Origin: an uncultured Clostridia bacterium
GTDB lineage: Bacteria > Bacillota > Clostridia > Peptostreptococcales > Anaerovoracaceae
Length of the DNA stretch: 64,000 nucleotides
Reading direction: 5' to 3'
NCBI GenBank assembly: GCA_945828095.1
Contig: CALZOZ010000001.1
Span: 4,652 to 68,651 of the forward strand
This document shows, one piece after another, positions 35,880-38,040 of the stretch. Every line of letters starts with the position of its first letter. The stretch's first letter is position 1. The notes beneath the pieces are model-generated. The model was given only the letters and a program-made list of their open reading frames with translations, made no database searches and was not told where the DNA came from. Made by a program: the position numbers and the translations under genes.

Positions 35880-35900
35880 TTAGAACTTTTATCCATAAAA

Positions 35901-35972
35901 ACGACCACTTAGAACAAAAAACGACCACTCAGAACATTGCGCTTGTAATCAGGCGCAATTTGTGTTTATACT
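35901..35972 (+). promoter_or_regulatory. direct-repeat box (ACGACCACTYAGAACA x2, 20-bp period) plus TATACT
   Basis: Repeats at 35901..35916 and 35921..35936; TATACT at 35967..35972, 30 nt after repeat 2. Lies immediately upstream of the LytTR regulator gene. Confidence 0.55.
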
Positions 35973-35977
35973 AAGGT

Positions 35978-36682
35978 ATGAAGATTTATATTTGTGATGA
36001 CATGATTGAAATAGTGGAAGCCGTAAAGGCAGAATGTGAGCATTACCTCCAGGCTAAAAATATGGAAGCCGAGGTAGCGGGTGATGTGTTCTTTCCTGAC
36101 GAGCTTGAGGAAGAGGACAAGCGGCCTGATATACTGCTCCTTGATATTGACATGCCAACAAGCAGCGGCATAGAGATAAAAGACCGCATGGAAAAGTATG
36201 AGGACGGACCGTTTATAATATTCATCACCAGCCATGACGAGATGGTTTACGAGGCTTTCGGTAAGAATGTCATAGGCTTCCTTAGAAAACCTGTGGACAG
36301 GGTGCTCTTTGAAAAGGTCATGGACAAGGCGGTGGATTTTTACGAGAGCCGTTTTCTCAGCGTGCAGCTTCCGGGAGGGATTGAGCTGATGTGCCGCGAT
36401 ATTATAGGAATCAAGTCGGAGCATGTGTACAGCACCATAGTGCTGGCTGACGGTGAGCTGAGTATAAGGCGAAGCCTCAAGGAATGGGAGACGCTGCTTC
36501 CGGAGAAGGACTTTCTCAGGATCAATGAGAAGTGGATAATCCACTATGCTTATGTGGATAAGATAAAAGACGATAAGGTAACGCTTAAGAACGGAGAAAG
36601 GCTGGCGGTGAGCCGCAGAAGGAAGCTGCAGCTTCGGGACGGCTACATATCGTATTGTTTGCGAAAGGGAAGGTATAGATGA
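35978..36682 (+). CDS. LytTR-family response regulator
   Basis: MKIYICDD...ILLLDIDMP receiver domain; LytTR C-terminus (FLRINEKWIIHYAYVDKI). Confidence 0.9.
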   Translation: MKIYICDDMIEIVEAVKAECEHYLQAKNMEAEVAGDVFFPDELEEEDKRPDILLLDIDMPTSSGIEIKDRMEKYEDGPFIIFITSHDEMVYEAFGKNVIGFLRKPVDRVLFEKVMDKAVDFYESRFLSVQLPGGIELMCRDIIGIKSEHVYSTIVLADGELSIRRSLKEWETLLPEKDFLRINEKWIIHYAYVDKIKDDKVTLKNGERLAVSRRRKLQLRDGYISYCLRKGRYR

Positions 36683-37959
36683 CGGTTTTAATGGGTGTTT
36701 TAGCAAGGTGTCTGTACGCTATAGGGGATATTGCTTTGTACAGAGGGGTGCTTGGATATGAGTTTAGTGAGTCTGCGCTGCGAAAAGTGTTCGGAGGCTT
36801 GTTTCTGGCGGGCTTCGCAGGAGCTATGGCGGTGCTGCCGGGGGCTGAGTACATAGAGTGGGTAATGTACGGGATGCTGTGGCTGGGTATGATGCTGATT
36901 TTTAAAAAACTACAGTTTGGGCTGGTAGTTTTTGTTTTTTTTGCAAGGCTGACAATAACAAATTTAGTTGATGGAATATCCATTATTATTTTCGCGGATA
37001 ATGACTTGGGGGAATTTTTAGCATGGAAGAGCATGGAGGTTTACTGTGTTCTTGTGCAGCTAGGTTTTTTGTTTTTGCTAGCAATTCTATGTTGCAAAAA
37101 AAGAAAATGGTCATGGCAGGAAAGTGTAAAGAAAACAAAAGGGTGGAAGTTTATAATTGGAGCGACATTTATGATGATGCCGACTATTTTGTCATGGGCG
37201 TGGGCGCTCCTTTCAAACCCATTTAACGTACAGAATTATATTTTTATGGAAAGCAACCTGCTCAGCATGGCAATAGTTGCTCTGGTTATAAGTGTTTTTG
37301 TATTAATGGATAAACATGATAAGATGGTTGAGCAGCTTGCGCTAAATGACCGCTGCATCAGGGAGCAGACGGAGCAGTACCGCATACTAAACGAGAAGCA
37401 AAAAGAGCTTAGGGCTTTCAGACATGATATTAAAGGACATATTTTGGCTATGAGAAGGATGGCGGCACAGGGAAGTTCTCAGGAACTGGCAGCTTATCTG
37501 GAGAAGTGGGCAGGACTGCAGGAAGAGACCTTTTACATATCCAGCAATAATATAATCGGAGATGCCATCTTTAATTTTTACTATGATAAGGGATGCAAAG
37601 AAGGAATCGAAGTCAAGGTGATGGGCAAGTTCCTGCAGGATATGGATGTGGCGGAAACCGACCTGTGCATAGTCCTGACCAATACGGTATCCAACGCCTA
37701 TGAAGCCGCCCTAAAATGTGGCAAGGGGAGCATTGTCACCGTAGAGTTGAGTCAGTTCTGTGGCAAGGCGATGATTGTAATAACCAATCCTGTAAAGGAA
37801 GAACCTAAAATACAAGGTGGCATTATGTCTACCACTAAAGCTGATAAAGAGCTTCATGGTCTCGGTATCTCAAACACTATGAAAGCACTGGAGAAATACG
37901 ATGGACAGATAACATGGGAGAAAAAAAGAGATGAAATCGTTACAAAAATAGTAATATAA
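36679..37959 (+). CDS. HPK10-type (AgrC/ComD-like) GHKL sensor histidine kinase
   Basis: Multi-TM N-terminus; H-box LRAFRHDIKGHILAM; N-box LTNTVSNAYEAA; G-box HGLGISN. ATGA overlap with the regulator gene. Confidence 0.85.
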   Translation: MTVLMGVLARCLYAIGDIALYRGVLGYEFSESALRKVFGGLFLAGFAGAMAVLPGAEYIEWVMYGMLWLGMMLIFKKLQFGLVVFVFFARLTITNLVDGISIIIFADNDLGEFLAWKSMEVYCVLVQLGFLFLLAILCCKKRKWSWQESVKKTKGWKFIIGATFMMMPTILSWAWALLSNPFNVQNYIFMESNLLSMAIVALVISVFVLMDKHDKMVEQLALNDRCIREQTEQYRILNEKQKELRAFRHDIKGHILAMRRMAAQGSSQELAAYLEKWAGLQEETFYISSNNIIGDAIFNFYYDKGCKEGIEVKVMGKFLQDMDVAETDLCIVLTNTVSNAYEAALKCGKGSIVTVELSQFCGKAMIVITNPVKEEPKIQGGIMSTTKADKELHGLGISNTMKALEKYDGQITWEKKRDEIVTKIVI

Positions 37960-37968
37960 CCCATAAAA

Positions 37969-38040
37969 ACGACCATTCAGAACAAAAAACGACCACTCAG
38001 AACATTGTTATTGCAATTATACTTAAAATAATGCTATGAT
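37969..38040 (+). promoter_or_regulatory. second copy of the direct-repeat box plus candidate -10
   Basis: Repeats at 37969..37984 and 37989..38004. TATGAT at 38035..38040 keeps the 30-nt spacing; an alternative TATACT lies at 38018..38023. Confidence 0.55.

Follow-up and report, generated by a model that had tools for sequence, protein, structure and literature searches.

A duplicated tandem-box element as candidate LytTR operator of a two-component operon and an exported-protein array in an uncultured gut Anaerovoracaceae bacterium

What does a promoter element control when it stands twice, almost unchanged, at either end of a two-component operon? The question is raised by a 64,000-nucleotide (nt) stretch of contig CALZOZ010000001.1, here called the window, which belongs to an uncultured Anaerovoracaceae bacterium known from gut metagenome-assembled genomes (MAGs). 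One 47-nt copy of the element precedes the genes for a LytTR response regulator and a membrane histidine kinase (site P1); the other precedes an array of genes for exported proteins (site P2). We propose with good confidence, from sequence comparison, that the two copies are operators of the adjacent regulator, through which it would turn on its own operon at P1 and the target genes at P2. Coordinates are collected in Table 1.

Copy 1, CCATAAAAACGACCACTTAGAACAAAAAACGACCACTCAGAACATTG, and copy 2, CCATAAAAACGACCATTCAGAACAAAAAACGACCACTCAGAACATTG, are identical at 45 of 47 nt, the other two positions being mismatched. Each holds the 16-mer ACGACCAYTYAGAACA twice with a period of 20 base pairs (bp), exactly and on the + strand, starting at 35901, 35921, 37969 and 37989; all of this agrees with the original prediction. 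These are the four exact occurrences in the window, and the sole further match has 3 mismatches; with as many as 3 tolerated, chance alone would give 1.2 matches per window. The true repeat unit is 20 nt long, AAAAACGACCAYTYAGAACA, because the A-tract preceding each box repeats too, and each copy is made of two tandem units. Four bases lie between AGAACAAAA and ACC. When the whole window is scanned with a weight matrix derived from all collected units, the two sites reach tandem scores of 61.7 and 59.7, and the runner-up 17. The element has no match in the plasmid and phage collections, and an Rfam scan of the window returned no family.

The likeness between the two sites goes beyond the 47 nt first noted: it extends over 72 nt at 83% identity (35878-35949 against 37946-38017) and takes in an in-register -35, TTGTAA at 35943-35948 and TTGCAA at 38011-38016. 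The -10-like hexamers predicted earlier lie exactly 30 nt past the second box (TATACT, 35967-35972; TATGAT, 38035-38040), with a TGn extension at P2. The P2 operator itself begins 1 nt past the kinase stop codon. We infer from these sequences that both promoters are used in vivo.

The arrangement is kept across strains and species. An identical regulator occurs on at least 20 contigs, from which ten loci were taken (L001-L010): each carries exactly two box pairs, except L003, which has three, the third preceding an extra gene of 155 amino acids (aa) inserted upstream of the regulator. Operator copy number in L003 tracks the transcription units. Orthologous loci with regulator identities of 82% (L011-L014), 70% (L016), 54% (L015) and 53% (L017) also carry a double box in both places, ahead of the regulator gene and behind the kinase gene; boxes in the P1 position are kept in L011, L016 and L017, and boxes in the P2 position in L011-L017, L040 and L041. 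The genomic contexts differ: L001-L010 lie beside the hut operon and a sortase gene, L011 between AzlCD and the SpoIIIA operon. Thirteen distinct promoters, from loci with 53-100% identical regulators and including two from another Clostridia MAG (L029, L039), align in exact register as unit-unit-N6-TTGnnn-N18-TAnnnT, with diverged spacers and flanks. We read this shared register as the mark of a working promoter that has an activator site upstream, and not of a chance or purely structural repeat.

The exactness of the spacing to -35 and -10, in 13 promoters whose flanks have diverged, also speaks against a non-regulatory origin, in which the repeats would have been left behind or used as substrates by cassette recombination, or would be copies of a dispersed short repeat, their adjacency to the two-component genes being a product of island assembly. 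Such an origin would agree with the rearrangement of the cargo array between strains, and with L003, where two box pairs exactly flank the extra gene and the distal box contains the junction, as recombination between elements predicts. The element nevertheless persists in unrelated contexts down to a regulator identity of 53%, is not dispersed in the scanned genomes and has no plasmid or phage occurrence, so that we hold this origin to be very unlikely.

The scan in question, run with a relaxed two-box pattern over 185,579 representative genomes, returned 17 hits; our own estimate from the information content of the pattern puts the chance expectation at about 9. Convincing among them are both sites of this species (L023) and a further two from a single other Clostridia MAG: L039, upstream of a homologue of a cargo protein, and L029, upstream of a membrane-anchored protein of unknown family. 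Most of the hits outside Clostridia look like chance matches, and another, from a Clostridia MAG (L038), proved to be a terminator stem. A specificity control came from 79 LytTR regulators sharing no more than 32% identity with that of the window: the roughly 470 kb of DNA around them lack the ACCRSTYA pair.

The gene adjoining the operator encodes a receiver and a LytTR domain, the latter with a Pfam score of 54.6 bits against a cut-off of 22.6, and the kinase gene is translationally coupled to it by an ATGA overlap. That the repeats mark LytTR autoregulation together with target activation, as first predicted, is thus supported by comparison: LytTR and AgrC-type neighbours, the register in 13 promoters and the retention of both positions all point to it. 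In the mechanism that we propose, the element would be the operator of this regulator, with two direct half-sites of core ACC(A/G)(C/G)T(C/T)A, each preceded by an A-tract. The half-site centres lie 20 bp apart, about two helical turns, and a regulator dimer would therefore sit on one face of the DNA. At both P1 and P2 a weak -35 starts 6 nt past the proximal box, and the spacer to the -10 has a suboptimal length of 18 nt. The AgrC-type kinase would phosphorylate the regulator, which would then bind and recruit or reposition RNA polymerase. At P1 this would amount to positive autoregulation, with a regulator-kinase mRNA that is probably leaderless; at P2 it would switch on the exported-protein array.

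The leaderless start is suggested by the P1 promoter, whose -10 ends only 5 nt ahead of the regulator ATG (35978), and by the lack of a usable Shine-Dalgarno sequence at that start. A distance of 5-6 nt between -10 and ATG is retained in L011, L016 and L017 despite differing intervening bases. The first ATG is taken as the true start because the receiver residues D7 and D8 are invariant. Together, the short distance, the lack of a usable Shine-Dalgarno sequence and the invariant D7 and D8 make a leaderless mRNA probable.

Each core promoter is overlapped by a hairpin. The one at P2 folds at -13.9 kcal/mol (z = -3.8); L011, L015, L017 and L040 have a counterpart at the cargo promoter and L003 has one at its third promoter, with z between -2.1 and -7.4. 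In 8 sequences the pairing holds in 89.6% of cells, and 9 pairs have changes on both sides; the covariation score was reached by 0 of 500 shuffles, and slid controls score well below it. Only read-through from upstream can form this hairpin, because the expected P2 start (about 38047) lies inside it. We infer that it is the terminator of the regulator-kinase transcript and leaves P2-initiated mRNA unaffected: it would stop transcripts coming from P1, and those initiated at P2, without the 5' arm, would pass, so that cargo expression would depend on P2 alone.

The P1 hairpin folds at -15.9 kcal/mol (z = -4.1), and is probably a terminator for the upstream transcript of the sortase gene and a CmpB remnant. 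As a conserved feature it was rejected: it is significant in this species only and is not kept in orthologues, which marks it as peculiar to this species and context. The remnant is a 62-aa open reading frame (35691-35879), a truncated PF06541 (ABC_trans_CmpB) gene, of which a 186-aa version stands at the same place in L002, L006 and L008.

With hairpins so close, the element might act as RNA, either as a protein-binding motif of a 3' untranslated region or as part of a terminator or attenuator. Its positions would suit such a role, since the P2 boxes stand 1 nt past the kinase stop codon and ahead of a conserved hairpin, and the P1 boxes follow the stop codon of the CmpB remnant, also ahead of a hairpin. 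Yet the boxes, direct repeats with helical phasing, are not themselves paired, orthologues do not keep the P1 hairpin, the window lacks an Rfam match, and the P1 boxes of L011 lie 3' of a strong upstream terminator and should therefore not be transcribed there. We regard a role as RNA as extremely improbable.

Several observations weigh against operators that activate at both sites. In this species the P2 hairpin is AU-rich and of only moderate stability, and it is absent from L029, L039 and L041. Among the 43-46% orthologues, the boxes ahead of the regulator gene of L019 are only 33 nt from a Shine-Dalgarno sequence and ATG, too close for the same promoter geometry, and L040 and L041 have no clear boxes before the regulator gene; autoregulation is therefore not universal in the wider clade. 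The scanned genomes, one per species and mostly incomplete MAGs, limit the sizing of the regulon.

The same three loci agree with another use of the boxes, in which the regulator binds them and either represses or purely autoregulates, or in which P2 alone depends on the regulator and P1 is constitutive. The -35 and -10 of both promoters are recognisable (9/12), so that some basal activity is likely, and L021 has an inverted third half-box within the spacer of its cargo promoter. Against these variants, the boxes lie upstream of the -35 and not over it, the 18-nt spacer is of the suboptimal kind found in AgrA-activated promoters, and the geometry of P1 is identical to that of P2 and kept in 53-100% orthologues. 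They seem to us unlikely, and activation at both sites remains the preferred reading.

Two of the more distant loci have features of their own. The inverted half-box of L021 (45% identical regulator), GAGTGGTCGTT at 2990-3005, lies inside the -35/-10 spacer and could be a negative-feedback site. Upstream of the 43% identical regulator of L019, about five tandem units of about 100 nt (7254-7700) each carry an inverted repeat TGACGCAAAT...ATTTGCGTCA.

How unusual are the boxes themselves? The original prediction held that they depart from the canonical LytTR consensus [TA][AC][CA]GTTN[AG][TG]. They do so only mildly, ACCACTCAG matching 7/9 positions, and they are no outlier, since orthologues bridge the gap to ACCGTT. 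The orthologues with 42-46% identical regulators carry ACCGTTCA, and their ACCGTTCAC matches 8/9 positions of the same consensus; in L040 (46%) and L041 (42%), GACCGTTCA shows the canonical ACCGTT core in the same promoter layout. Loci at 43-45% identity have mixed boxes with a 21-bp period, and regulators at 27-28% identity are associated with TTGACCGTTCA pairs after the kinase gene. The locus L042 (36% identical regulator) was set aside as outside the family; it is without such boxes and precedes an ABC transporter. On this comparison the box of the window is a derived variant in a continuous series from ACCGTT to ACCACT. The LytTR residues that follow the conserved F-R are NEK with ACCACT boxes, and DKS or DKG with ACCGTT boxes, a possible lead on what sets box preference.

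LytTR sites consist of two repeats of 9-11 nt, 11-13 nt apart, with no common consensus and with a contribution of flanking DNA (PMC4847170). The element fits this geometry, with a core of 8-9 nt, 20 bp between centres and a spacer of 11-12 nt; the distant orthologues have the 21-bp period. The AgrA sites are a pair of direct repeats that stand just ahead of promoters whose spacers, 18 and 20 nt, are suboptimal (PMC4227749), and the 18-nt spacer of P1 and P2 is of this kind. The locus resembles systems of the agr/ComE/PlnC type (agr P2/P3, comCDE, pln) in its pairing of a HATPase_c_5 kinase with a LytTR regulator, in the two direct half-sites about two helical turns apart and directly upstream of the -35, and in the assignment of one copy to the regulator-kinase operon and the other to a target operon. 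It differs from them in the core and period (ACCACT and 20 bp here, ACAGTT and 21-22 bp there), and in its targets, which are exported proteins of unknown family and not known toxins, bacteriocins or competence genes.

The closest half-sites are found in E. coli. The oligonucleotide 'yjiY YehT bs' contains GACCGCTTA-N12-AACCACTCA (PMC4847170), and we located it upstream of btsT (yjiY) in E. coli genomes. The half-sites of the window, GACCACTTA and GACCACTCA, are almost identical to these, and in both cases an A-rich stretch stands just ahead of the proximal half-site; the period here, 20 bp, is 1 bp shorter than the 21 bp of E. coli. The motif of BtsR (YehT) was reportedly given by Kraxenberger et al. 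in 2012 as ACC[G/A]CT[C/T]A with a 13-bp spacer, and a direct repeat of it is present in the target promoter here. Among NCBIfam models for the regulator, LytR and BtsR rank above AgrA. Nevertheless, the regulator is 26% identical to BtsR and scores 55.5 bits with the BtsR model, whose cut-off is 246; the kinase, with HATPase_c_5 as its sole domain, is not of the LytS type of BtsS (YehU), with 5TMR-LYT and His_kinase (PF06580); and the targets match no family, when that of BtsR is btsT, a pyruvate transporter of the CstA family. The likeness to BtsR is one of shared specificity and not of membership, because the regulators are only 26% identical and the kinase class differs. A box pair GACCACTTGGGACAAAAAATAACCACTTA was also seen in a MAG labelled Rickettsiales (L024, 5731-5759), 44 nt past the stop codon of a LytTR regulator whose partner sensor is a His_kinase (PF06580); it may be a real BtsR-like site and not a chance hit.

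Table 1. Positions in the window of the two operators, their promoters and hairpins, the adjoining genes and the second LytTR system
Feature	Position	Strand	Description
P1 operator	35893..35939	+	two tandem 20-nt units; boxes 35901-35916, 35921-35936
P1 cores	35904-35911; 35924-35931	+	ACCACTTA; ACCACTCA
P1 core promoter	35943..35972	+	-35 TTGTAA, 18-nt spacer, -10 TATACT; 9/12 match
P1 hairpin and T-rich run	35936..35969	+	10-bp hairpin 35936-35959; overlaps P1 -35 and spacer
Response regulator	35978..36682	+	receiver and LytTR domain; Pfam LytTR E = 1.3e-14, Response_reg E = 2.3e-12
AgrC-type membrane histidine kinase	36679..37959	+	HATPase_c_5 (PF14501, E = 3.6e-16); about 6-7 N-terminal hydrophobic segments
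Hypervariable sensor cassette in kinase gene	36856-37329	+	from allele comparison; about 36955-37329 against allele B
P2 operator	37961..38007	+	two tandem 20-nt units; boxes 37969-37984, 37989-38004
P2 core promoter	38011..38040	+	-35 TTGCAA, 18-nt spacer, extended -10 TGcTATGAT; 9/12 match with TG
P2 hairpin and U-rich run	38026..38082	+	hairpin 38026-38078; 5' arm over P2 extended -10, 3' arm followed by U-rich run
First cargo gene, 271 aa	38098..38913	+	signal peptide, helical N-terminal part, beta-rich C-terminal part
Remaining cargo array	39035..44824	+	exported, lipoprotein or membrane-anchored; 315, 155, 68, 218, 145, 51, 192, 393 aa
System 1, regulator	15405-16124		
System 1, kinase	14123-15403		
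System 1 operator pairs	11973-12001, 16181-16209	+	before polysaccharide deacetylase gene; before Peptidase_M26_N-like gene

Three alleles of the kinase gene are 16-19% identical inside the sensor cassette and 93-100% outside it, in strains whose regulators are 99-100% identical. About 55 kinase clusters (72% identity) were considered as so many sensor alleles and rejected: they collapse into one allele, and the total is three. Discrete hypervariable sensor groups are known from the agr, com and blp pherotypes, to which the window kinase is alike in this respect. It is unlike the agr/ComE/PlnC-type systems in that the variable block is confined entirely to the kinase gene, and nothing co-varying with the three alleles was found in the locus. 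Domain searches of the neighbouring genes, in the window and in L001-L010, found no AgrD or AgrB, no double-glycine (GG) leader peptide and no C39 ABC transporter of the kind that exports such peptides, a further difference from agr-type loci.

Nine genes follow P2 on the same strand. Their products have signal peptides, lipoprotein signals or membrane anchors, and no meaningful match in Pfam or NCBIfam. The first of them, the 271-aa protein, is the most conserved target, with homologues 3' of the kinase gene in L011 (60% identical) and L040; its homologues number more than 100, and all of them lack a Pfam domain and an informative name. Its reasonably confident AlphaFold2 model (predicted local distance difference test score, 79) has no fold match in the PDB at E <= 0.001. 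GFP-like hits reach TM-scores of only about 0.1.

The content and order of the cargo genes vary by strain, the order of the 192-aa and 393-aa genes being reversed in L002, and the array also holds gene fragments and internally duplicated stretches. The 3' end of the first cargo gene recurs as a 98-nt copy at 93% identity (38817-38914 and 42198-42295); a direct repeat of about 560 bp, from 41133 and from 42518 onward, contains a second copy of part of the 218-aa lipoprotein gene; and two genes share an 89-nt repeat at their ends (40442-40530 and 43560-43648). The cargo of L011 includes a stand-alone secreted Peptidase_C39_2 protein (13061-13690) that is not in the array of the window. In some strains one or two additional genes for exported proteins stand upstream of the regulator (L003, 9097-9128 and 9351-9818; L007, 67-1193). 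Those of L003 are preceded by the third operator and promoter, and their junction with P1, inside the distal box, suggests recombination between operator copies.

A second LytTR circuit lies in the same window (system 1; the one described above is system 2). Its element reads CATTTC(A/G)G-N13-CATTTC(A/G)G, followed by GCGAAATTCGACA, with a 21-bp period. As in system 2, there are two operator pairs on the + strand, each ahead of a gene, and an A-rich stretch parts the system 1 boxes. The box itself is different: (G)CATTTC(A/G)G shares only TCAG with that of system 2, and the two regulators are 28% identical. It resembles the ComE-type box. A further likeness is to the YpdB motif of E. coli, GGCATTTCAT (PMC4847170), so that by analogy the two systems of the window would parallel two E. 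coli box types, BtsR and YpdB. The prediction of two separate circuits with distinct boxes, CATTTC(A/G)G in one and ACC(A/G)(C/G)T(C/T)A in the other, holds; their insulation from each other is plausible, given boxes that differ in sequence and that in each case adjoin their own system.

A bolder interpretation, doubtful though worth stating, is that operator, core promoter and -10-embedded terminator together form a portable, self-insulated promoter cassette that is copied before new secreted-protein genes and driven by a three-allele kinase without a linked pheromone gene. The locus might then be an undescribed strain-discriminating signalling or competition system of gut Anaerovoracaceae, with a new cargo family.

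The operator design as such is ordinary: it follows the textbook layout of the LytTR family, and current understanding is not overturned. What the locus offers is of specialist interest, and lies in the promoter-embedded terminator, the likely leaderless start, the BtsR-like half-sites and the three sensor alleles. For a two-component system of an uncultured gut Anaerovoracaceae bacterium that had been uncharacterised, it gives a testable definition of a regulon, with operator sequence, geometry and targets, and it ties exported proteins of unknown function to signal-dependent control. Both the promoter-embedded terminator and the set of three sensor alleles are compact in design and lend themselves to direct tests. 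For the LytTR family, the orthologue series from ACCGTT to ACCACT, together with the BtsR-like half-sites, supplies natural variants for studying how these regulators read DNA.

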